Shown here one piece after another: positions 3,212 to 49,019 of a stretch of DNA of 53,067 bases (position 1 is its first letter; every line of letters begins with the position of its first letter). Location: NCBI GenBank assembly GCA_001795735.1, contig MGKQ01000014.1:5625-58691 (forward strand), given 5' to 3'. The DNA comes from Candidatus Yanofskybacteria bacterium RIFCSPLOWO2_02_FULL_41_13. GTDB taxonomy: Bacteria; Patescibacteriota; Minisyncoccia; 2-02-FULL-40-12; GWA2-44-9. Below the pieces are notes generated by a model. It had not been told where the DNA came from. It was given only the letters and a program-made list of their open reading frames with translations, and made no database searches. The position numbers were made by a program, and so were the translations under genes.

Positions 3212-4957
3212 ATGCCGATTAAAATTCCAACAACTTTAGTCGAAGAGCTGATAAAACTGGGGCTTTTATCTAAGAGGGATGTTAAGTCCTATGAAGACTT
3301 GGCCAAGAAAGAAGATAAAGAGCTTGGCCAGATTTTAATTGAAAAAGATGTCGTCTCGGCCAGTGACCTTTTGGAAATTAAGTCAAGACTCTATAGGTTG
3401 CCGATAGTAAAACTGGAAGAAATTAAGCTTGATAGCGAAGCATTGAAAGAAATAGCTGAAGATGTGGTAAATTTTTACAAGATGGCCCCGTTTGCCAAGG
3501 AGGGGGATATCCTGAAGGTGGGCGTTATAAATCCCGAAGACATTGATGCCCTGGAAGCCCTCAAGTTTATAGCCTCCGACAAGGGGTTAAAAATTGACAA
3601 ATATATTATTGATTACCGTGATTTTGAGGGCATATTAAAAAATTACCGTTCCTTAACTGCTGAAGTCGGCAAAGCGCTTGAATCTCTTTCCGAAGAAGCT
3701 GAAAAAGAGGTTATCACCCAGAAGAAAATAGAAGAAATCAGCGCCGAAGGAGCGGTTACCCGTATTGTAGCCTCGATTGTTAAGTATGCAGTTGAGTCTC
3801 GCGCTTCCGATATTCACATTGAAGCTTTCGAAGAAAAAGTAAATGTCCGGTTCAGAATTGATGGGGTTTTAATTATCGCCCTAACCCTGCCCAAGAACGT
3901 CCATTCGGCCGTACTAACCAGAATTAAGGTTCTTTCAAACCTAAAAATCGACGAAACCAGACTGGCTCAAGACGGAAGATTCTCGACAATGCTCAATAAG
4001 CGGAGGATAGATTTTAGAGTTTCGACTTTTCCGACTAAAAACGGCGAGAAAGTCGTTATGCGTATTTTAGATCCACTTACAAACAAAATTGACCTTCCGG
4101 ATTTAGGAATTGACGGCAGATCTCTGGAGGTTCTTGAGCGGGCAATGACTAAACCGTTCGGAAGCATACTGATTACCGGTCCTACCGGTTCGGGTAAGTC
4201 TACTACTTTAGCCGGAATGCTTAAGCGTTTAAACAACGAGGAGGTGAATATCGTAACCCTTGAAGATCCGATTGAGTATTTTGTCGAAGGCGTTAATCAA
4301 TCTCAAATCCACGAAGAGATCGGATATACTTTTGCCTCCGGCTTGCGCCACATTCTAAGACAGGACCCGGATATTATCATGGTCGGAGAGATCAGAGATA
4401 AAGAAACGGCGGCCTTGGCTACTCAAGCGGCGTTAACCGGCCATATCGTCTTATCAACTCTCCACACGAATGATGCCATGGGTGTTGTTCCTCGTTTGAT
4501 TGATATGGGAGTTGAGAAGTACCTTATACCACCGACTCTTAATGTTGCGGCCGCTCAGCGCTTGCTGAGACGTCTATGTCCTGATTGTAAAATAAAAGCA
4601 AAAGCCAATGTTGCCGAAGAGGGGATCATCAATAAAGCTATTCTGGGTATGCCGGAAAAGTATCAAAAAGAGCTCTTGTCTCAGAGTGGTTATCAAATCC
4701 ACAAACCTAACATTGAAAACCCGTGCAAAAAATGTTCAGGAAAGGCTTTTAAGGGCCGAATGGGTATATTTGAAATGCTTGAGATGACCGATGAATTTGA
4801 GAAAATTATACTGGCTGACTTTTCCGAATCGGCAACGAGAGAGGAAGCTCGACGCCAAGGCATGATAACAATGTTTCAGGACGGAATATTAAAAGTGCTG
4901 AGGGGTGTTGTCTCTATTGATGAGTTACTTGAGGTAGCTGAAGCAGATAAGAAATAG
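3212..4957 (+). CDS. pilB: Type IV pilus extension ATPase PilB/GspE
   Basis: ASDIHIE, GPTGSGKSTT, RQDPDIIMVGEIRD, GHIVLSTLHTN, tetracysteine motif. Confidence 0.95.
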   Translation: MPIKIPTTLVEELIKLGLLSKRDVKSYEDLAKKEDKELGQILIEKDVVSASDLLEIKSRLYRLPIVKLEEIKLDSEALKEIAEDVVNFYKMAPFAKEGDILKVGVINPEDIDALEALKFIASDKGLKIDKYIIDYRDFEGILKNYRSLTAEVGKALESLSEEAEKEVITQKKIEEISAEGAVTRIVASIVKYAVESRASDIHIEAFEEKVNVRFRIDGVLIIALTLPKNVHSAVLTRIKVLSNLKIDETRLAQDGRFSTMLNKRRIDFRVSTFPTKNGEKVVMRILDPLTNKIDLPDLGIDGRSLEVLERAMTKPFGSILITGPTGSGKSTTLAGMLKRLNNEEVNIVTLEDPIEYFVEGVNQSQIHEEIGYTFASGLRHILRQDPDIIMVGEIRDKETAALATQAALTGHIVLSTLHTNDAMGVVPRLIDMGVEKYLIPPTLNVAAAQRLLRRLCPDCKIKAKANVAEEGIINKAILGMPEKYQKELLSQSGYQIHKPNIENPCKKCSGKAFKGRMGIFEMLEMTDEFEKIILADFSESATREEARRQGMITMFQDGILKVLRGVVSIDELLEVAEADKK

Positions 4958-5042: not shown

Positions 5043-6110
5043 ATGTCAGACTTTAAACAACAGCTAGAAGACTTATTAATGGCTGCCGGCCAAAACGGCG
5101 CTTCCGATATTCACTTATCTCCGGGAAACTATCCTATTCTGAGAATCGATGGCCGCTTAATTCCGCTTTCTAACAAAAAAATCCTTGATTCTGAAATTCT
5201 CGAAGGGTTAGCTTCGGTATTATTGGGCGATGAAAGAAAAACCAGATTTGTCTCAGAGAAAGAAATTGATTTTTCTTATGAATCCAGCCAGGGAACCCGC
5301 TTCAGGGTGAACGTTTATTATACTCAAGGAAGAGTAGCGGCAACCTTGAGGTTAGTGCCAAATCAGATTAAAAGCATCGAGGATTTAAATCTACCTGAGA
5401 TTATAAAAGTTTTTGCGAAGCTTTCTCAAGGATTTGTGCTAGTTGTCGGTCCAAACGGTCATGGCAAATCAACTACTCTTGCCGCAATCATTGATCTTAT
5501 CAACAAAGAGCGGTCAGAAAAAATTATTACCATTGAAGATCCGATCGAATATATCTTTAATCCGGAAAAAAGCATTATTGACCAGCGTGAAGTTTATCAG
5601 GATACGTTTTCATTCCATAAAGCTCTTCGATCTGCTTTCAGGGAGAACGTTAATGTCGTTATGGTGGGAGAGATGAGAGACTACGAGACCATGAGCGCCG
5701 CTGTTACGGCCGCTGAAACCGGACATTTGGTTTTTGGATCCCTCCATACCAACAGCGCCTCTCAAACGGTTGAAAGAATCATTGATACTTTTCCACCCAA
5801 TCAACAGTCTCAAATAAGAAACCAACTGGCTAATACAATATCGGGTATTATTTCGCAAAGATTAATTCCCAGAATTAAGGGCGGCCTGATACCGGCAGTC
5901 GAAGTAATGATTGCTAATCCGGCAGTCAGAACTCTCATCAGAGACAACCGGCCCAGACAGCTGGACTTAGTTATAGAGACCAGCCAGGAATCAGGCATGA
6001 TTTCGCTTAACCGTTCATTAGCTGATTTGGTCAGAAGAAAAGAGATAAGCCTTGAAAGAGCCCAGTTTTACTCTCAAGACCCTTCAGAACTCAAGGAACT
6101 TATAAGGTAA
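5043..6110 (+). CDS. pilT: Type IV pilus retraction ATPase PilT
   Basis: ASDIHL, GPNGHGKSTT, AAETGHLVFGSLHTN, AVRTLIRD (AIRNLIRE-like). Confidence 0.93.
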   Translation: MSDFKQQLEDLLMAAGQNGASDIHLSPGNYPILRIDGRLIPLSNKKILDSEILEGLASVLLGDERKTRFVSEKEIDFSYESSQGTRFRVNVYYTQGRVAATLRLVPNQIKSIEDLNLPEIIKVFAKLSQGFVLVVGPNGHGKSTTLAAIIDLINKERSEKIITIEDPIEYIFNPEKSIIDQREVYQDTFSFHKALRSAFRENVNVVMVGEMRDYETMSAAVTAAETGHLVFGSLHTNSASQTVERIIDTFPPNQQSQIRNQLANTISGIISQRLIPRIKGGLIPAVEVMIANPAVRTLIRDNRPRQLDLVIETSQESGMISLNRSLADLVRRKEISLERAQFYSQDPSELKELIR

Positions 6111-23344: not shown

Positions 23345-23502
23345 GGGCGGGCTTATTTAAACACAAAACCCGCCACAGGTGCGCCTTGCGGCGCATACAG
23401 GCCTTTCGACCTGCAACGTTCGACACGCCCTATGACGGGGTTAATATGTCGAACGGTTTTTTGCCATACCCACAAGAAAAAACCTGTGGGGTTAGGCAAC
23501 TC
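23345..23502 (-). ncRNA. Candidate multi-stem structured RNA or leader
   Basis: Minus-strand stems CGTTCGACA/TGTCGAACG, CAGGTC-GAAA-GGCCTG, TGCGCC-GCAA-GGCGCA (GNRA loops), CCCACAGG/CTTGTGGG. Confidence 0.55.
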
Positions 23503-39297: not shown

Positions 39298-39374
39298 TGG
39301 TGGGCCCAGCAGGGGTCGAACCTGCAACCAACCGGTTATGAGCCGGACGCTCTGCGCTATTGAGCTATGGGCCC
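39298..39374 (-). tRNA. tRNA with CAT anticodon, most likely Ile2 (lysidine type)
   Basis: GGGCCCA/TGGGCCC, loop CTCATAA, encoded CCA, no initiator features; D-loop lacks GG. Confidence 0.85.
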
Positions 39375-39413
39375 CCTCCCCAGTTTTTTTCTAAAACTGG
39401 GGAGGGGGCCCAT
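39367..39413. repeat. Perfect 21-bp inverted repeat overlapping the tRNA 5' end
   Basis: ATGGGCCCCCTCCCCAGTTTT-TTTCT-AAAACTGGGGAGGGGGCCCAT. Confidence 0.9.
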
Positions 39414-42745: not shown

Positions 42746-43180
42746 ATGGATAAAATCAAGATCAAAAGATTTGATAAAGAATTACCATTGCCGGAATATA
42801 AAACCGCCGGAGCGGCCGGTTTTGATTTATATGCCAGAGAGAAAACCACAATAAATCCAGGGGCGGTTGGTTATGTGCCATTAAATGTCGCCCTTGAAAC
42901 ACCTAGAGACCATTTTTTAATCTTGGCCGTCCGAAGCTCAACTCATAAACTCGGCTTAATGCCGGCCAATGGAATTGGGATAGGGGATTCTGATTTTCGG
43001 GGAGATGAAGATGAGTACAAGATAGTTTTGCTAAATTTCACAAAAAAATCTGTTACAGTAGAGCGTGGCTCCAGAATAGCCCAGGGATTATTTGTTAAAA
43101 TCACAAAAGCTAAGTGGCAAGAAGTGGATAAAATGAGTTCAAAAACCCGCGGTGGGTTTGGTTCAACGGGAAAAAAGTAA
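42746..43180 (+). CDS. dut: dUTP diphosphatase
   Basis: AAGFDL, RSS, GIGDSDFRG, RIAQG, RGGFGSTG. Confidence 0.95.
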   Translation: MDKIKIKRFDKELPLPEYKTAGAAGFDLYAREKTTINPGAVGYVPLNVALETPRDHFLILAVRSSTHKLGLMPANGIGIGDSDFRGDEDEYKIVLLNFTKKSVTVERGSRIAQGLFVKITKAKWQEVDKMSSKTRGGFGSTGKK

Positions 43181-43183
43181 ATT

Positions 43184-43254
43184 CGGGCCGGAGTATGCCG
43201 GTAGTACGCGCCCTTCGGGTGGGTGAAGACCGTGTTCGATTCACGGCGGCCCGA
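43184..43254 (+). tRNA. tRNA-Pro (CGG)
   Basis: CGGGCCG/CGGCCCG, loop TTCGGGT, TTCGATT. Confidence 0.92.
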
Positions 43255-43346
43255 CTATAAGAGATGAGCCGAGTTTTTCATTAATAACAAGGGCCCGTAG
43301 TAAAGTGGCATTACGCGGCATTCGTCCCGATTTATAAAATTTTGAA

Positions 43347-43601
43347 ATGTTTTATTGCTATATCCTTCAATCTAAACTAAATGGCGCATATTATATAGGT
43401 AGCTGTCAGAACATTGATGTGAGGGTTAAACAACATAATAAGTTTTTAGTCCCAGCTACGAAAAGATATGCTCCGTAGGTTGTTGTTTATAGACAGGAAT
43501 TTAATACCCTTAAAGATGCCGGAGAAAAAGAACTAAAAATTAAATCTTGGAAGAAAAGAAGCGCCATTGAAAAATTAATTAAAACATTTCAAAATTTTTA
43601 A
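43347..43601 (+). pseudogene. Small GIY-YIG nuclease with one in-frame TAG
   Basis: Manual: MFYCYILQS...YYIGSCQNIDVRVKQHN...TKRYAP*VVVYRQEF...EKELKIKSWKKRSAIEKLI; TAG 43476-43478 where this family usually has Trp (PW). Confidence 0.88.
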
Positions 43602-43629
43602 TAAATCGTGGATCCGCGATAACTCTGGT

Positions 43630-43700
43630 GGGCCCGTAGTTAAGTGGTATAACGCGACATTCGCATTGTCGAGGCGGGAGTTCGATTCTCCCCGGGTCCA
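43630..43700 (+). tRNA. Intact tRNA-Ala (CGC) nested in the insert
   Basis: GGGCCCG/CGGGTCC with G3:U70, CGACA-TTCGCAT-TGTCG, GGGAG-TTCGATT-CTCCC. Confidence 0.95.
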
Positions 43701-43744
43701 CATGGGCCCACCAGAGTTATCGGGACATTGCTGAGACGCGGTTT

Positions 43745-43786
43745 TCCAGACTTTATCAAAAATCCGCGATAGCATAGCTATCGGGA
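43745..43786. repeat. 42-bp palindromic insert in the T-loop of the split tRNA
   Basis: TCCAGACTTTATCAAAAA-TCCGCGATAGC-ATA-GCTATCGGGA; same right-hand module as the large insert. Confidence 0.85.
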
Positions 43787-43820
43787 CGATTACCGCCGGG
43801 TCCACTGATTTAAATTTAAT

Positions 43821-46346
43821 TTACTTAATATCCTCCGTAGTCAGACCAAAGACCATTCCTTTATTAATACTTCCGTCTAGGATTTTCTTGGCAATGGCGC
43901 TTTCGACTTTATCTCGAATAACTCGCTCCATCGGACGGGCTCCGAACTGGGGATCAAAGCCGGCTTTAGCCACGTAGTCGGCAATATCTTGAGTCGGTTT
44001 AAAGAAGTAGCCCTGATCTTTTAGCCTGGCGGCCAGAGAGTCAAGAAGAATTATTGTAATTTTACCAACCTGATCCTGCGATAGGGGATGGAACGTCACT
44101 ATCTCATCGAAACGGTTAAGCAGTTCGGGTTTAAAATGATGCTCTTTAATCAATACATCTATCAGCTTCTCTTTCTCGATAGATGGATCTAGTCCTTGCT
44201 TTATTAAGTCGCGGATAAAATCAGCTCCGGCATTAGAAGTAGCAATAATTATATTCTGTTCAAAATTTATTCTTCTACCAAAAGCGTCAGTCAGGTGGCC
44301 CTCATCAAAAACCTGCAAAAATATATTAAGGACATTCTTATCCGCTTTTTCTATTTCATCCAGAAGAATCAAAGAAAATGGGTTGTCTCGAACTTGAGTC
44401 ACAAACTGTCCCGGTTCGTTACTTCTAGCCGAACCGATGAATCTATCGAGCGATTCCTGGTTTTGGTATTCCGACATATCAAACCTTAGCATCCTGTCAG
44501 CGGAACCAAAATAGATTTTAGCGAGTATCTTTGCCGTCAGGGTTTTCCCGACTCCCGTCGGACCGATGAAAAGAAAAACTCCGGCCGGCTTGCCACGCTT
44601 GGCAAAGCCTGCTCTTAAGCGCCTCATCGTTGAGGACACAACCTCAACCGCCCGATCTTGGCCGATTATTTCTTTATGCATGAACTCCTCCAAACGAATC
44701 AGTTTATCTTTCTCTTCTCCGATTACCGGCCCCAGCGGTATGCCTGTTTTTTGACTTATAACCTCGTGTACGTCTTTTTTGGTCACGATCCGGTCTTTTC
44801 GGTTCACGACATGAGAGATAACTTCAGTTAAAAGATCAAATGCCTTTTCGGGGAATGGCGCCGTTCTTATAAACTTATCCGCTCCGGTGACAATTTCCTT
44901 TATCGCTCCATAGGTAACGAGTATACTTTGCTTTGACTCAAATGCCGGCACTGCCTCCTCTAGAATTTTGATCGTTTGTACAGCGCTTGGTTCGACAATG
45001 TTAATTCTTTCAAAAACATTTGTCAGCTCAGATCTCTGCTCTATGAATTTATGAAAATTTATAGGATTGGTGATCGCTATCACCTGAATTTTGCTTGATC
45101 TTAGATAGGGAACCAGTACTTCTGAAACATCAATCCTCCCCATCCCACCGATTTCGCCTATAAAATTATGGAGATCTTTAAGAACCAATATGACGTTGCC
45201 TGCTTTTACAGCTTCGTTAAATGTGGCTATCAAAATATTCTGAACATCGGTAATTTCTTTTGACGCACTTGCAACCAGCGATAAATTAAGATCAAAAACC
45301 TTTTTGTAATTAAGCTGTGGCAAAGCCCGGCCCTTGGCAATCATTTCCGCAAAATCAAGAATTATATTTTCCCGACCTACACCCTCTTCTCCGACAAGAA
45401 GAACGTTATTTTCTCCCGAGCGGGCAAGAATCTGTTCCATCTGATCCATCTCTTTCTTTCTTCTTATCAGACGCATTTTAGGTCGGGCAAGTTCCATCTT
45501 GTCAGTCAAATTTACTGCAAAAGCAGTAAGGTGACGGGCATAACCATAAATCCAATCCCGGCCGATCGGCGGCTGACGTAAAAGATTCTCCAAGCTCCAG
45601 AACTTCCTGTAGTTTCTCCAGAATGTCCAGATATGCTCGTACCATTCGGCAAGCTCCTCCATATCTTCTTTATTTAAATCCTGGTTTAAAATAAACTGTT
45701 TGAACTCATTGCTATAGTCAAATAACGAAGCCATGATATCGAGAACTGATATTTTCCGGCTTCCGTGCTTATCGCGAATAGCCAGAGCGTCTTTCAGCAA
45801 CTCCAGAATTTCGGGGGTAATTTCCTGAGTTGTAAATAAAGAAAATTTGACAGAAAAAAGTTTCCGTCTGCCAAGATTCTCTTCTAGGTGCTTCTTAATT
45901 GAACCGAAGCTAGGAATAATTCTCATGAAAAGCTTTTCCATTATGCCATCTTCAATCAGGGCAGTTAGCAAAGTTTTTGTTGAAAGAGCTTTCTCTCCAA
46001 GTCCACGAGACAGCTCAAAAGCCCGGTCAAAAACTTTTGCCGCTTCATATTCAATCAAGTCTGCAATATTACTAGTGTTTTTGACTTTAGGGTATTTGAG
46101 ATAATAATTGCCGAATAACTCGAATATGGAGACGGCAATAGCAAAAGGTAAAACAATAAATGTCCAGCCGACATTTATGTAAATCTGGGTTTCGTAGGCC
46201 ATGTTAATAACCGCGAAGCCAATCGGCACGAGAGCGAGAACAAAAAGTAAAACACGGTAAAACTTTAAAATTCCGGCCGGAAAATAGCGGTAGAAAAGAA
46301 CAGCCTTGTAGATCTCCGAATTTCTTAAGTTGAATGTCATATACAA
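43821..46346 (-). CDS. ClpA/ClpB-family ATPase with N-terminal TMs and degenerate first ATPase domain
   Basis: NBD2 intact (GPTGVGKT, LLDEIEKA, PELLNRFD, GARP); NBD1 reads GEEGVGRE and LVLKDLH. Confidence 0.9.
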   Translation of the reverse strand: MYMTFNLRNSEIYKAVLFYRYFPAGILKFYRVLLFVLALVPIGFAVINMAYETQIYINVGWTFIVLPFAIAVSIFELFGNYYLKYPKVKNTSNIADLIEYEAAKVFDRAFELSRGLGEKALSTKTLLTALIEDGIMEKLFMRIIPSFGSIKKHLEENLGRRKLFSVKFSLFTTQEITPEILELLKDALAIRDKHGSRKISVLDIMASLFDYSNEFKQFILNQDLNKEDMEELAEWYEHIWTFWRNYRKFWSLENLLRQPPIGRDWIYGYARHLTAFAVNLTDKMELARPKMRLIRRKKEMDQMEQILARSGENNVLLVGEEGVGRENIILDFAEMIAKGRALPQLNYKKVFDLNLSLVASASKEITDVQNILIATFNEAVKAGNVILVLKDLHNFIGEIGGMGRIDVSEVLVPYLRSSKIQVIAITNPINFHKFIEQRSELTNVFERINIVEPSAVQTIKILEEAVPAFESKQSILVTYGAIKEIVTGADKFIRTAPFPEKAFDLLTEVISHVVNRKDRIVTKKDVHEVISQKTGIPLGPVIGEEKDKLIRLEEFMHKEIIGQDRAVEVVSSTMRRLRAGFAKRGKPAGVFLFIGPTGVGKTLTAKILAKIYFGSADRMLRFDMSEYQNQESLDRFIGSARSNEPGQFVTQVRDNPFSLILLDEIEKADKNVLNIFLQVFDEGHLTDAFGRRINFEQNIIIATSNAGADFIRDLIKQGLDPSIEKEKLIDVLIKEHHFKPELLNRFDEIVTFHPLSQDQVGKITIILLDSLAARLKDQGYFFKPTQDIADYVAKAGFDPQFGARPMERVIRDKVESAIAKKILDGSINKGMVFGLTTEDIK

Positions 46347-46758: not shown

Positions 46759-46789
46759 TATAAATAATATAGCATAATAATTTAAAAAT

Positions 46790-46980
46790 ATCGCTCAGAG
46801 ACTATACCCAGACTCGGACCACATTCGGTTTCTGAGGCGATTCCAGAAGCGGCTAAAGCACGCTTCTAAAACCTTCGCCTTTATCCAGCGAGAAACCGAA
46901 TCTTAAGTACTCGGCAAAATTGCAGAACCAAGCCAATTTTGCCTGCGTGTTTCCTCCCTAGGGTATAGTCTCCTCGCGAT
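46790..46980. other. About 190-nt nested inverted-repeat structure (ncRNA or MITE-like)
   Basis: Perfect stems of 12, 11, 10 and 7 bp in a multibranch arrangement. Confidence 0.6.
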
Positions 46981-47024
46981 AAATTGTCTTAAATTTAAAA
47001 TTCGTGATAAAGTCTTATAAAATG

Positions 47025-49019
47025 TCTGATAAAATATTCGAAAATCTGAACACCAAGCAGGTTGAGGCCGTTAAGATTATTGACGGGCCGGTCTTGGTTA
47101 TTTCCGGACCCGGTTCCGGCAAAACAAGATGCCTGACCCATAGGGTCGCTTACCTGATGTCTCAAGGGATTTCTCCCCAGAGTATCCTCGCCGTAACATT
47201 CACTAACAAAGCCGCCGGGGAAATGCACGGCCGCATTCTTAATCTCCTCGAGGTTGAACCTCAATATCGAGGTTCAACCTCGATAGGTTCGATAATGCCG
47301 CTAATCGGCACTTTCCACTCGATCGGCCTCCGAATCTTACGCAATGAGATTCTCCAGCTAGGCTACCGCCGAAATTTCACCATTTTTGACGAAGACGATC
47401 AGCTGAGTCTTGTGAAAAGAGTGATGACCGATCTTGAGATAGACACAAAGAGCTTTAATCCCAAAATAATTTTGTATAAAATTTCTGAATTAAAAACCCA
47501 GCTCGTCTTTCCTGAGAATTACGAACCGCAGGAATTCTATCCAAATATCGTAGCTAAAATATATATAAAATATCAGCAGGAATTAAAAAACCTAAATTCA
47601 CTCGATTTCGATGATCTGATTGTTTTACCAATCAGAATTTTTCAGCAGAATCCAGAGATACTGCAAAAATATCAAGAAACTTGGAAATATACTTTAGTTG
47701 ATGAATATCAGGATACCAGCCATGATCAGTATGTTTTTATTAACCTCCTTGCCAAAAAATACCGCAACCTTTTCGCAATAGGGGACGATGCTCAATCTAT
47801 CTATCAATTCCGCCGAGCCGATATCAGAAACATTCTTAATTTCCAGAAAGATTACCCGGAAGCAAAAATAGTGATGCTCGAACAAAATTACCGTTCGACT
47901 AAGAACATCATAACCGCCGCTCAGGAAATAATCTCAAAAAACAAAAACCAGATTCCTAAATCTCTCTGGACAAACAATAACCATGGCGAGAAAATCCCCG
48001 TCATCGAAACGCTAAATGAGCGCCATGAAGCCAGTTTTGTCGTTTCCAAGATAGAAGACTTTCTGGCCAAAGGATTTTCACCTAAAGACTTTGCCGTTTT
48101 ATACCGCACCCATGCCCAGTCACGAGCAATCGAAGAAGCGCTGATAATGAGCGGCCATCCCTATCAAATAGTAGGCGGACTGAAATTTTACGAAAGAAAG
48201 GAAATTAAAGACATCATCAGCTATCTAAAACTAGCAGTAAATTCAGCCGATTCGTTGGCCCTTGAAAGAATATACAATATACCGGCAAGAGGAATCGGAA
48301 AATCAACTTTGGAAAAAATCAGAAACTTAAAAGCCAACGTACTAAAAGCTCTTGAAGCGACAGTTAAGGAAAAGATGATGCCCTCAAAACAGCTGACGGC
48401 CGTTTCTGAATTTTACAAAACCCTAAGCGATATTATTAAAACTGCCGAGAAAAAGAATCTCCGCGAAACAATAAAATACATAATTAAAAAAATAGGCTAT
48501 GAGGAATATCTTAAAGAATTCAGTCTGGCTAAACAAGGTGACTATGAAAATTTTGAAGACAGAATAGAAAATTTAAAAGAGCTGCAAACTGTCGCCTCAA
48601 AATATGACGAGTTCGAAGGCAAAGAGGGGATAGAAAGATTTCTGGAAGAGGTCTCGCTCCTTCAACATACAGATAAACTAAGAGACAACCCCAACCGTAT
48701 AACACTCATGACCATCCATGCTTCTAAGGGGCTAGAGTTTCCGGCCGTATTTATTGTCGGAATGGAAGAAGGTCTTTTTCCTCACAGCCGAACCGTGATA
48801 AACCCTCAGGAGTTGGAAGAAGAGCGCCGGCTTTGCTACGTGGCCATAACCAGAGCCAAAGAACATCTTATTCTAACTTATGCAAAATATCGCCGGATAT
48901 TCGGTTCGTCATCAGCAACATTGCCCTCCAGATTTATCGGAGAGATTCCGGCAAAATTAGCCGACTGGCAGATAATAGAGGATTATAGCGATGATAATGA
49001 AGAAAAAATTTACTACTAA
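47025..49019 (+). CDS. pcrA: PcrA/UvrD ATP-dependent DNA helicase
   Basis: SGPGSGKTR, TFTNKAA, VDEYQDT, GDDAQSIY, LEQNYRST, TIHASKGLEF, YVAITRAK. Confidence 0.96.
   Translation, partial: SDKIFENLNTKQVEAVKIIDGPVLVISGPGSGKTRCLTHRVAYLMSQGISPQSILAVTFTNKAAGEMHGRILNLLEVEPQYRGSTSIGSIMPLIGTFHSIGLRILRNEILQLGYRRNFTIFDEDDQLSLVKRVMTDLEIDTKSFNPKIILYKISELKTQLVFPENYEPQEFYPNIVAKIYIKYQQELKNLNSLDFDDLIVLPIRIFQQNPEILQKYQETWKYTLVDEYQDTSHDQYVFINLLAKKYRNLFAIGDDAQSIYQFRRADIRNILNFQKDYPEAKIVMLEQNYRSTKNIITAAQEIISKNKNQIPKSLWTNNNHGEKIPVIETLNERHEASFVVSKIEDFLAKGFSPKDFAVLYRTHAQSRAIEEALIMSGHPYQIVGGLKFYERKEIKDIISYLKLAVNSADSLALERIYNIPARGIGKSTLEKIRNLKANVLKALEATVKEKMMPSKQLTAVSEFYKTLSDIIKTAEKKNLRETIKYIIKKIGYEEYLKEFSLAKQGDYENFEDRIENLKELQTVASKYDEFEGKEGIERFLEEVSLLQHTDKLRDNPNRITLMTIHASKGLEFPAVFIVGMEEGLFPHSRTVINPQELEEERRLCYVAITRAKEHLILTYAKYRRIFGSSSATLPSRFIGEIPAKLADWQIIEDYSDDNEEKIYY
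47248..47283. repeat. In-frame palindrome in pcrA, 15-bp perfect arms
   Basis: TCGAGGTTGAACCTC-AATATC-GAGGTTCAACCTCGA, encodes EVEPQYRGSTS. Confidence 0.9.

Follow-up and report, generated by a model that had tools for sequence, protein, structure and literature searches.

Prophages and other integrative elements that enter tRNA genes restore the 3′ part of the gene; they span kilobases, employ tyrosine or serine recombinases, duplicate the attachment-site portion alone, and leave behind an intact tRNA together with an incomplete one. Members of IS200/IS605, mobilized by the HUH transposase TnpA, have hairpins at their ends, recognize a short specific target, insert seamlessly without duplicating it, and have small, non-autonomous palindromic derivatives. 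Bulge-helix-bulge introns of archaeal and eukaryal tRNAs have their splice sites in two 3-nt bulges with a 4-bp helix between them, and their hosts encode the splicing endonuclease EndA. The subject of this report is a tRNA-Ala(CGC) gene of Candidatus Yanofskybacteria bacterium RIFCSPLOWO2_02_FULL_41_13 that is split by two inserts of 401 and 42 bp (insert 1 and insert 2), the larger of which encloses a GIY-YIG nuclease gene and a second, complete tRNA-Ala(CGC). The split gene lies in a stretch of 53,067 nucleotides (contig MGKQ01000014.1, assembly GCA_001795735.1, positions 5,625 to 58,691 of the forward strand), referred to here as the window. Very probably, insert 1 is a selfish DNA-level element that entered a native tRNA-Ala(CGC) gene precisely and carried a rescue tRNA with it. 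It belongs to a widespread and apparently undescribed family of double-hairpin mobile elements with rescue tRNAs.

In the atp6 gene of the fungus Allomyces, an endonuclease open reading frame (ORF) reportedly inserts into the gene and brings a replacement gene end, and copies of the double-hairpin elements (DHEs) of fungal mitochondria are said to nest in one another. As cited in later papers, DHEs of Allomyces and Schizosaccharomyces mitochondrial DNA consist of two adjacent stem-loops, are thought to be mobile, lack a flanking duplication, and occur in intergenic DNA and stable-RNA genes (Paquin, Laforest & Lang 2000, via PMC10085805 and PMC2800124). Group I introns occur in the anticodon loops of bacterial tRNAs and sometimes encode a GIY-YIG endonuclease (PMC3984707), and phage T4 carries SegB, a free-standing GIY-YIG homing endonuclease gene, in a tRNA gene cluster (PMC2330249). 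In bacteria of the candidate phyla radiation (CPR, Patescibacteria), GIY-YIG ORFs also occur in rRNA gene insertions that fit neither the group I nor the group II type of intron (Tsurumaki et al. 2024, PMC11270868); these insertions may belong to the same family as insert 1. A full-text literature search found no description of the double-hairpin, tRNA-bearing elements reported here.

The interrupted, or outer, gene survives as three pieces of 34, 19 and 18 nt (Table 1). An earlier note on this DNA, made from the sequence alone, had claimed that they rejoin into a flawless tRNA-Ala(CGC), and both the coordinates and the ARAGORN fold agree: the rejoined 71–72 nt form a perfect cloverleaf with G3:U70 and one G.U pair in the anticodon stem. 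With insert 1 alone deleted, ARAGORN did not detect the outer tRNA, and with insert 2 alone deleted it detected only the inner one. On the unspliced window, ARAGORN and Rfam call the inner tRNA and nothing of the outer gene, as had been foreseen for automated tools. Insert 1 lies between anticodon nucleotides 35 and 36 and insert 2 in the T-loop; neither junction pair shows a target duplication or direct repeats, and the junctions cannot be shifted. Uninterrupted alleles elsewhere match this description, placing the boundaries exactly to the nucleotide with 0 target bases lost. For instance, the T-loop is uninterrupted (GCGGTTTCGATTACCGC) in the related outer copies of loci L125 and L145, and the empty T-loop site is also found in L174–L184. 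Four independent assemblies, made with different pipelines, agree at 100% over the 641 bp from 43181 to 43821 that separate the dUTPase gene from the ClpB-like gene, so the structure is real and misassembly is ruled out. A recount of the differences between outer and inner tRNA gave the same 13 positions as before: five pairs changed on both sides (the five compensatory pairs of the earlier note), a sixth changed on only one, and two positions that are unpaired. In the T-stem, the outer tRNA has GCGGT/ACCGC where the inner one has GGGAG/CTCCC.

Insert 1 is built as TCC|CGAT...hairpin A...ATCG|TGGA, followed directly by TCCG|CGATA...hairpin B...TATCG|GGA. A 7–8 nt motif thus occurs four times in alternating orientation, and its outermost copies are the terminal inverted repeats. 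Hairpin A encloses the nuclease gene, the start and stop codons of which fall within its arms, while the left arm of hairpin B overlaps the first 6 nt of the inner tRNA. The whole region folds with z = -7.85 against shuffled sequence. Insert 2 had been regarded as a separate kind of insert, a view that did not hold. Its left end (TCCAGA) has one mismatch, its leader (TTTAT..AAAA) is as in insert 1, and its right half (ATCCGCGATAGC-ATA-GCTATCGGGA) is the same as in insert 1; the right arm of hairpin A is lost. These shared parts mark insert 2 as a cargo-less member of the family that has decayed.

Table 1. The split tRNA-Ala(CGC) gene, its two inserts and their parts, in window coordinates.
Feature	Position	Strand	Details
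Outer tRNA-Ala(CGC) piece 1, native	43291..43324	+	34 nt, acceptor 5′ strand to anticodon nt 35 (...TTCG); 34/34 nt as in the intact L184 gene
Insert 1, double-hairpin mobile element	43325..43725	+	401 bp; 7-nt terminal inverted repeats TCCCGAT (43325-43331) and ATCGGGA (43719-43725)
Hairpin A	43328..43608	+	Arms 43328-43354 and 43580-43608 (~28 nt); perfect 19/19 bp core, 43336-43354 with 43580-43598
GIY-YIG nuclease pseudogene	43347..43601	+	84 codons; Pfam PF01541, E = 2.7e-15
Central junction	43605..43620	+	ATCGTGGA|TCCGCGAT; right base of hairpin A abuts left base of hairpin B; family signature
Hairpin B	43617..43722	+	Perfect 19-bp arms 43617-43635 and 43704-43722; inner tRNA inside
Inner tRNA-Ala(CGC), intact, element-borne replacement gene	43630..43701	+	ARAGORN; Rfam 67.5 bits
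Outer tRNA piece 2	43726..43744	+	19 nt, anticodon nt 36 to T-loop nt 55 (CATTG...GGTTT)
Insert 2, degenerate miniature of the family of insert 1	43745..43786	+	42 bp; hairpin B (TCCGCGATAGC-ATA-GCTATCGGGA) intact
Outer tRNA piece 3	43787..43804	+	18 nt, T-loop nt 56 to discriminator A73

By analogy, the element would work most like a GIY-YIG homing cassette combined with the fungal DHEs. It shares with DHEs two adjacent stem-loops that form a unit, the absence of a target duplication, and presence or absence among relatives, a likeness that is architectural only. DHEs, as those papers portray them, are mitochondrial, G+C-rich and without genes, whereas the family of insert 1 is bacterial and A+T-rich, with TCCCGAT/ATCGGGA ends, a target motif, and nuclease and tRNA genes in its loops. 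The likeness to SegB and homing cassettes lies in a GIY-YIG gene tied to tRNA genes, an interrupted gene for which a replacement is supplied, and signs of gene conversion beside the insertion. In contrast, SegB-type enzymes have a DNA-binding domain, no terminal repeats and no miniatures, whereas the present family has a bare 84-aa domain, inverted-repeat ends and cargo-less copies; and where homing cassettes replace a gene end, here the whole tRNA is replaced.

Group I introns offer an intervening sequence in a tRNA anticodon loop and GIY-YIG, and differ in that insert 2 is only 42 bp long, the site is 35/36, a replacement tRNA is carried, and the outer genes decay. The earlier observation that the inserts break group I rules is upheld: there is no U before the 5′ junctions (the 5′ exons end in G and T), no terminal G (both inserts end in A), and no ribozyme core. 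No group I or II intron or ribozyme was found by Rfam cmscan of 42900-44100 at E <= 10, which returned only tRNA and chance matches, nor by a whole-window scan at gathering thresholds. A bulge-helix-bulge intron was likewise rejected, as pairing between the insert ends (TCC.../...GGA) runs right up to the two junctions and leaves no bulge. With tRNA integrants the element has in common that a tRNA gene is the target and that element sequence keeps tRNA function; it differs in its size (0.4 kb), in having no recombinase (no tyrosine or serine recombinase ORF occurs within or beside the 401-bp insert), and in nesting a complete, independent tRNA in a cleanly split one. IS200/IS605 elements resemble it in their end hairpins, short specific target, lack of duplication and small cargo-less derivatives, but the present family has true inverted-repeat ends and abutting hairpins, with cargo in the loops and not between the hairpins. 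Neither HUH (Y1) TnpA nor TnpB is present in insert 1, whose only ORF is the GIY-YIG gene.

Empty alleles, the search for which had been proposed in the earlier note, were found with a DNA pattern spanning the healed anticodon loop and the peculiar outer T-arm. Uninterrupted tRNA-Ala(CGC) genes of the outer type occur in 11 related genomes, and in five of the 11 the gene was shown to come immediately after tRNA-Pro(CGG), which is also its place in the window. Because such genes exist, and because the intact gene of L184 differs from the spliced outer tRNA of the window at only 2/72 nt, the outer pieces represent the native gene, cut precisely. The neighboring genes for the CCA-adding enzyme and UvrD are common to the clade. 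Among hosts at similar divergence (CCA enzyme 68–82% identical), about 10 empty loci stand beside at least six filled ones, a patchiness that indicates gain and loss and not an ancient fixed feature. An attempt to reach close empty strains through relatives of the dUTPase (81–91% identical) failed, as the shared gene order is lost right after tRNA-Pro.

The same locus has been interrupted in another way in related Yanofskybacteria. In L062 and L063 (MGKE01000014 and MGIY01000012), ~95–290 nt past the dUTPase stop codon, the native tRNA-Ala(CGC) is split by a single hairpin with a 13-bp stem (CCCCGTTAGACAT…) around another tRNA-Ala(CGC). This insert, the stem of which reads CACCCCG..., lacks both a GIY-YIG gene and TCCCGAT ends, and the outer copy of L062 has C56 changed to A plus an acceptor mismatch. 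An ancient insertion shared with L062 and L063 is ruled out, since the hairpin family is different; theirs is an independent strike on the same gene.

Genome and metagenome collections were scanned for the central junction, AATCGnGGATCCnCGATARC, yielding 35 and 109 loci, respectively. With chance matches and duplicates removed and only canonical TCCCGA...TCGGGA ends kept, 74 non-redundant elements remained, so that the split tRNAs looked for in other genomes proved to include dozens of homologous structures. All 74 have hairpins A and B joined at ATCGnGGA|TCCnCGAT, and in 69 of them the R of CGATARC, a stem position, shows covariation with the base that it pairs with. In the family layout, loop A is the site of the GIY-YIG gene and loop B that of the tRNA. 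Almost all hosts are Patescibacteria (Yanofsky-, Portnoy-, Davies-, Sungii- and Saccharibacteria, and Paceibacterota). A tRNA is carried by 43/74 elements (39 Ala with anticodon CGC or TGC, 2 Lys(CTT), 1 Ser(GGA) and 1 Thr(CGT)); the other 31 are cargo-less and 42–87 bp long.

The cargo-less copies also reveal the target. From 29 distinct cargo-less insertions, a consensus of (C/A)TTG|CAAT was obtained, with G at -1 in 21/29 and C at +1 in 22/29. The palindrome TTG|CAA lies within the anticodon loop of tRNA-Ala(UGC) (TTTGCAA), and the corresponding site in Ala(CGC) is TCG|CAT. Because the Ser(GGA) gene was struck at TTG|GAA, which is 34|35 and not 35|36, the insertion site is set by sequence and not by position in the tRNA. 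A structure-defined target, such as a hairpin loop, was considered and found no support among the intergenic copies: their junctions fell in a predicted loop in 8/31 cases against 5.8 expected, with a mean fold z of -0.46. These data point to a target defined by sequence. Cargo-less copies are confined to intergenic DNA and to tRNAs that are already split. For example, those inspected in tRNA contexts (L068, L116, L120) lie in outer tRNAs already holding a tRNA-bearing element. None was found inside long ORFs, and residence in protein genes, which would need splicing, was dismissed, as no spliced flank stayed open for >53 codons on both sides.

Several cargo-less elements have settings of their own. 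One and the same conserved intergenic site (AAGAAAAACTTG|AAATTGTCA), which includes a TTGAAA motif, holds a cargo-less element in eight contigs (L031, L039, L083, L098, L099, L127, L137 and L155). Within one Parcubacteria genome (JACPLU01), three identical 47-bp cargo-less elements (L042, L044, L048) are each embedded in a larger repeated unit of ~200 nt that is itself bounded by terminal inverted repeats (CTTGGTGAATAATACTCTT…AAGAGTATTATTCACCAAG); this unit is either a second repeat family or a three-copy RNA gene. In L028 (JACPMF010000019, Sungiibacteriota, ~4140–4320), a cargo-less element has on one side a remnant of a gene start (15 codons, MPHLHDDKIKFLEET…) and on the other a further start of that gene, this one complete (MSHLHEDKIKFLEETANT…); this may be a case of “interrupt and replace” applied to a protein gene. 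Finally, the T-loops of the outer tRNAs of L054 and L024 hold two-hairpin mini-inserts with other base motifs (TCACCC…GGGTGA with CCACCC…GGGTGG, and TCCGCC…GGCGGA with CCCGCC…GGCGGG), which suggests that several sequence families share the double-hairpin design.

Comparison of inner and outer tRNAs across the family supports the earlier claim that the inner copy is an independent allele and not a local duplicate. The inner tRNA of the window differs from that of L125 by 1 nt, and the outer tRNA is closest to native alleles; at L089, the outer 5′ piece is 97% identical to that of the window, the inner tRNA only 77%. By these comparisons, inner tRNA and host allele are independent of each other, and local tRNA duplication was rejected since the inner copy is nearer to tRNAs borne by elements at other loci than to its outer copy. 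Decay was assessed with an alignment-free count of anticodon-stem pairing alone; rebuilding outer tRNAs by alignment to the inner ones misplaces bases (the perfect outer tRNA of the window scored two bad pairs) and was not used for statistics. Inner anticodon stems are paired 5/5 in 38/38 elements. Outer stems are fully paired in 15/38 and broken in 23/38, with two or more non-pairs in 16. Some outer tRNAs have gained further inserts (in D-, anticodon or T-loops), suffered deletions, lost loops, or changed invariant bases.

Wherever it can be read, the identity of the outer tRNA equals that of the inner one (39 Ala, 2 Lys, 1 Ser; L051 could not be read). Inner tRNA and outer gene point in one direction in every case, also where the element is inverted (Lys and Thr cases), and this co-orientation is read as a dependence of the inner tRNA on the outer gene's transcription. 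The 3′ strand of the outer anticodon stem is identical to that of the inner one in 9/38 elements, versus 2/38 for the 5′ strand. Anticodon-arm sequences that are inner at one locus are outer at another, and inner copies keep the target motif; hence there is no sign that the inner allele is immune to the nuclease by its sequence.

A more elaborate arrangement occurs in L111 (Ga0210057_1005504, ~5190–5660 in element orientation). Three tandem units, each a 5′ half of tRNA-Ala(TGC) plus the left part of an element, precede an intact tRNA, a right end and a 3′ half, one of each, and the innermost outer/inner pair is 100% identical. The arrangement looks like re-invasion, or like unequal recombination between inner and outer repeats.

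That insert 1 holds a GIY-YIG gene, as the earlier note had proposed, is borne out by its Pfam match (Table 1). A single in-frame TAG (43476-43478) replaces the conserved Trp of its PW motif. TAG closes 5/31 long ORFs in the window, so its decoding as an amino acid is ruled out and it is an ordinary stop. On this reading of the frame, the nuclease gene of the window is dead, and the element copy would now be a fossil or reliant on a nuclease from elsewhere. Across the family, the ORF is intact in 25/28 ORF-bearing elements and is therefore under selection. For example, L006 (Parcubacteria GW2011_GWA2_48_9) has the architecture of the window in a tRNA-Ala(TGC), with its nuclease gene intact. 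Family ORFs encode 81–86 aa, the catalytic domain alone, with the motifs YYIGS...HN...R.RE..IK conserved; searches of Pfam and of structural relatives found no separate DNA-binding domain in them. Among proteins of solved structure, those closest to it by sequence are UPF0213 proteins and SLX1, a structure-specific nuclease.

A search with the nuclease protein retrieved 15 loci, with a tRNA gene beside the GIY-YIG gene in 15/15. Homologues in L008–L020 belong to Flavobacterium spp., other Bacteroidota and a Verrucomicrobiota metagenome-assembled genome, and are 37–60% identical (mostly 43–48%) over the matched segment. They follow closely after an intact tRNA (Ala-GGC; Asn-GTT in L020) and have tandem tRNA fragments on their flanks; in these fragments, a TCCCGA-loop-TCGGGA mini-hairpin takes the place of the anticodon region. 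The protein and the TCCCGA/TCGGGA motif travel together across phyla, and it is mainly because of this co-occurrence that the nuclease is proposed to act on the motif.

Taken as a whole, the favored account, which is held with good confidence, is that of a DNA-level selfish element that inserted precisely into a native tRNA-Ala(CGC) gene and brought a rescue tRNA. Insert 1 would have entered between nucleotides 35 and 36 (TTCG|CAT) and inactivated the native gene, which was probably the only tRNA-Ala(CGC) gene of the host. The inner tRNA, transcribed in the direction of the broken gene, would be excised by ordinary tRNA-processing enzymes and take over decoding, making the insertion tolerable and simple loss of the element costly. 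Insert 2 would have landed later, in the T-loop of an outer gene that was already dead. The enzyme behind mobility may be the GIY-YIG protein, which would act either on the TCCCGA/TCGGGA motif or on the target TTG|CAA, and the element could spread through homing (break repair) or through transposition. Numerous ectopic copies, bounded by defined inverted-repeat ends, have the look of transposition, whereas the bias toward the 3′ strand and the L111 tandem fit break-induced repair or recombination between inner and outer repeats. Since its outer tRNA is perfect, it has gained only one extra, degenerate insert, and its nuclease gene is freshly broken, the insertion in the window is read as fairly young.

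Some observations sit less easily with this account. The closest sampled element is only ~80% identical to that of the window, so that no very recent transfer was caught, and no excised or circular form of the element was seen in the sequences examined. The flawless state of the outer tRNA after two insertions fits a young insertion and, equally, a retained function. The inner tRNA still has TTCG|CAT, the target motif, and yet avoids insertion. In addition, the single-copy status of tRNA-Ala(CGC) is assumed from 53 kb of genome, and the activity and substrate of the nuclease and the chemistry of insertion are deduced from sequence. A more specific version of the selfish-element account is offered tentatively, at somewhat less than even confidence: the family may be a new class of prokaryotic transposon with a minimal Slx1/UPF0213-type GIY-YIG protein as its only enzyme, inserting at TTG|CAA and carrying a cargo tRNA as a built-in rescue. 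The nuclease of such a class would recognize the TCCCGA/TCGGGA bases of the element's own hairpins, and the whole would amount to a natural “home-and-rescue” gene drive in tRNA genes.

Other explanations have to account for the same observations. An artefact or local accident, whether misassembly or a tRNA duplication with random insertions and no mobile element, might come to mind since the sequence is metagenome-assembled and contains repeated tRNA-like segments; the four identical assemblies, the dozens of homologous structures in other genomes, and the kinship of the inner tRNA, which is nearer to tRNAs carried by elements at other loci than to the outer gene around it (itself nearest to native alleles), leave this reading with next to no probability. 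Classical homing alone is a more serious contender, in which the GIY-YIG protein would be a sequence-specific homing endonuclease, the inner tRNA its immune allele, and homologous repair the sole means of spread. Such a process would suit the shared insertion point in the tRNA-Ala genes of many lineages and the patchy filled and empty alleles at one locus, and the hybrid outer stems suggest break-initiated gene conversion, with which the three left units and single right end of L111 also agree. It is nevertheless unlikely, as the 31 cargo-less copies occupy many unrelated intergenic TTG|CAA-like sites in the manner of a transposon, the protein is a bare catalytic domain, and the interchangeable anticodon arms give no evidence of an immune allele.

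The earlier note had offered two readings of the locus, a selfish nuclease element that supplies a substitute tRNA and an RNA-level excision of a new kind that restores the outer tRNA. For the latter, the terminal UCCCGA/UCGGGA helices would join the exon ends, a nuclease (of the host or the GIY-YIG protein itself) would cut at the base, and a ligase such as RtcB would rejoin the pieces. The perfect cloverleaf left in the window once both inserts are removed, insert ends that are exactly complementary and flush with the junctions, folding far beyond that of shuffled sequence, and the 15/38 family outers with fully paired anticodon stems would all be in keeping with excision. Against it stand the broken anticodon stems of most outer genes, some of which have also lost loops or mutated C56, and the presence of an inner copy in every interrupted tRNA, which splicing would make needless. 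Nor was any cargo-less copy found alone in an otherwise intact tRNA or within an ORF; insert 2 lacks half of hairpin A and has a mismatched terminal helix; and neither bulge-helix-bulge bulges nor an Rfam ribozyme or intron is present. Outer decay, inner integrity and the placement of cargo-less copies are predicted by a gene-killing DNA insertion with a substitute and not by a spliced intron. The part of the excision reading that stands is the undecayed state of the window's own outer pieces; family-wide decay speaks against the rest, and excision as the general explanation is very improbable. Equally slim is the chance that young copies such as that of the window are also removed at the RNA level, which would make them a new protein-dependent bacterial tRNA intron. 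The selfish-element reading, in turn, gained from the recovery of the native gene and its empty alleles, and from outer tRNAs that decay while inner ones never do.

Elsewhere in the window, the genes for a CCA-adding enzyme, a ClpB-like protein and a UvrD-like protein are read as bacterial in character. A match to the Rfam LOOT RNA, a structured RNA of unknown function, lies at 23380-23498 on the minus strand and scores 84.8 bits against a gathering score of 46.4. A near-perfect back-to-back palindrome (…TCGAGGTTGAACCTCAAT|ATCGAGGTTCAACCTCGATAG…) occurs at 47230-47301 (plus strand) inside the UvrD-like helicase gene (47004-49019), where it encodes a loop between helicase motifs; its ATCGAGG…CCTCGATAG motif resembles the central junction of the element. 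Because the loop is of nearly the same length in relatives, the palindrome is not a fresh insertion. At 39367-39413, a perfect 21-bp inverted repeat overlaps the 5′ end of tRNA-Met (39298-39374, minus strand), the leader of which can pair with the acceptor strand in a manner reminiscent of hairpin B around the inner tRNA. Lastly, a 21-nt inverted repeat with TATCGC…/…GCGATA ends encloses 151 nt at 46789-46981, in intergenic DNA upstream of the helicase gene; it has no Rfam match and is possibly an unrelated structured RNA or another hairpin-type element.

A complete tRNA within the hairpin of an element, itself nested in a split copy of the same tRNA, appears not to have been described before. 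It is a natural case in which a selfish element disrupts an essential gene and supplies the rescue copy itself, and the same logic underlies synthetic “cleave-and-rescue” and “home-and-rescue” gene drives. For genome annotation, the consequence is that tRNA finders give only the inner gene, so that native alleles and elements go unseen in Patescibacteria genomes. The family also offers a living model for the origin of split or interrupted tRNA genes. Beyond the Patescibacteria, small uncharacterized GIY-YIG proteins of the very large UPF0213/Slx1-like family are tied to a DNA motif and to tRNA genes in at least three phyla, and direct biochemistry is possible since the hosts of these relatives include the cultivable genus Flavobacterium. 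If the family is indeed a new class of transposon, this would be the first function for the large family of small UPF0213-type GIY-YIG proteins.

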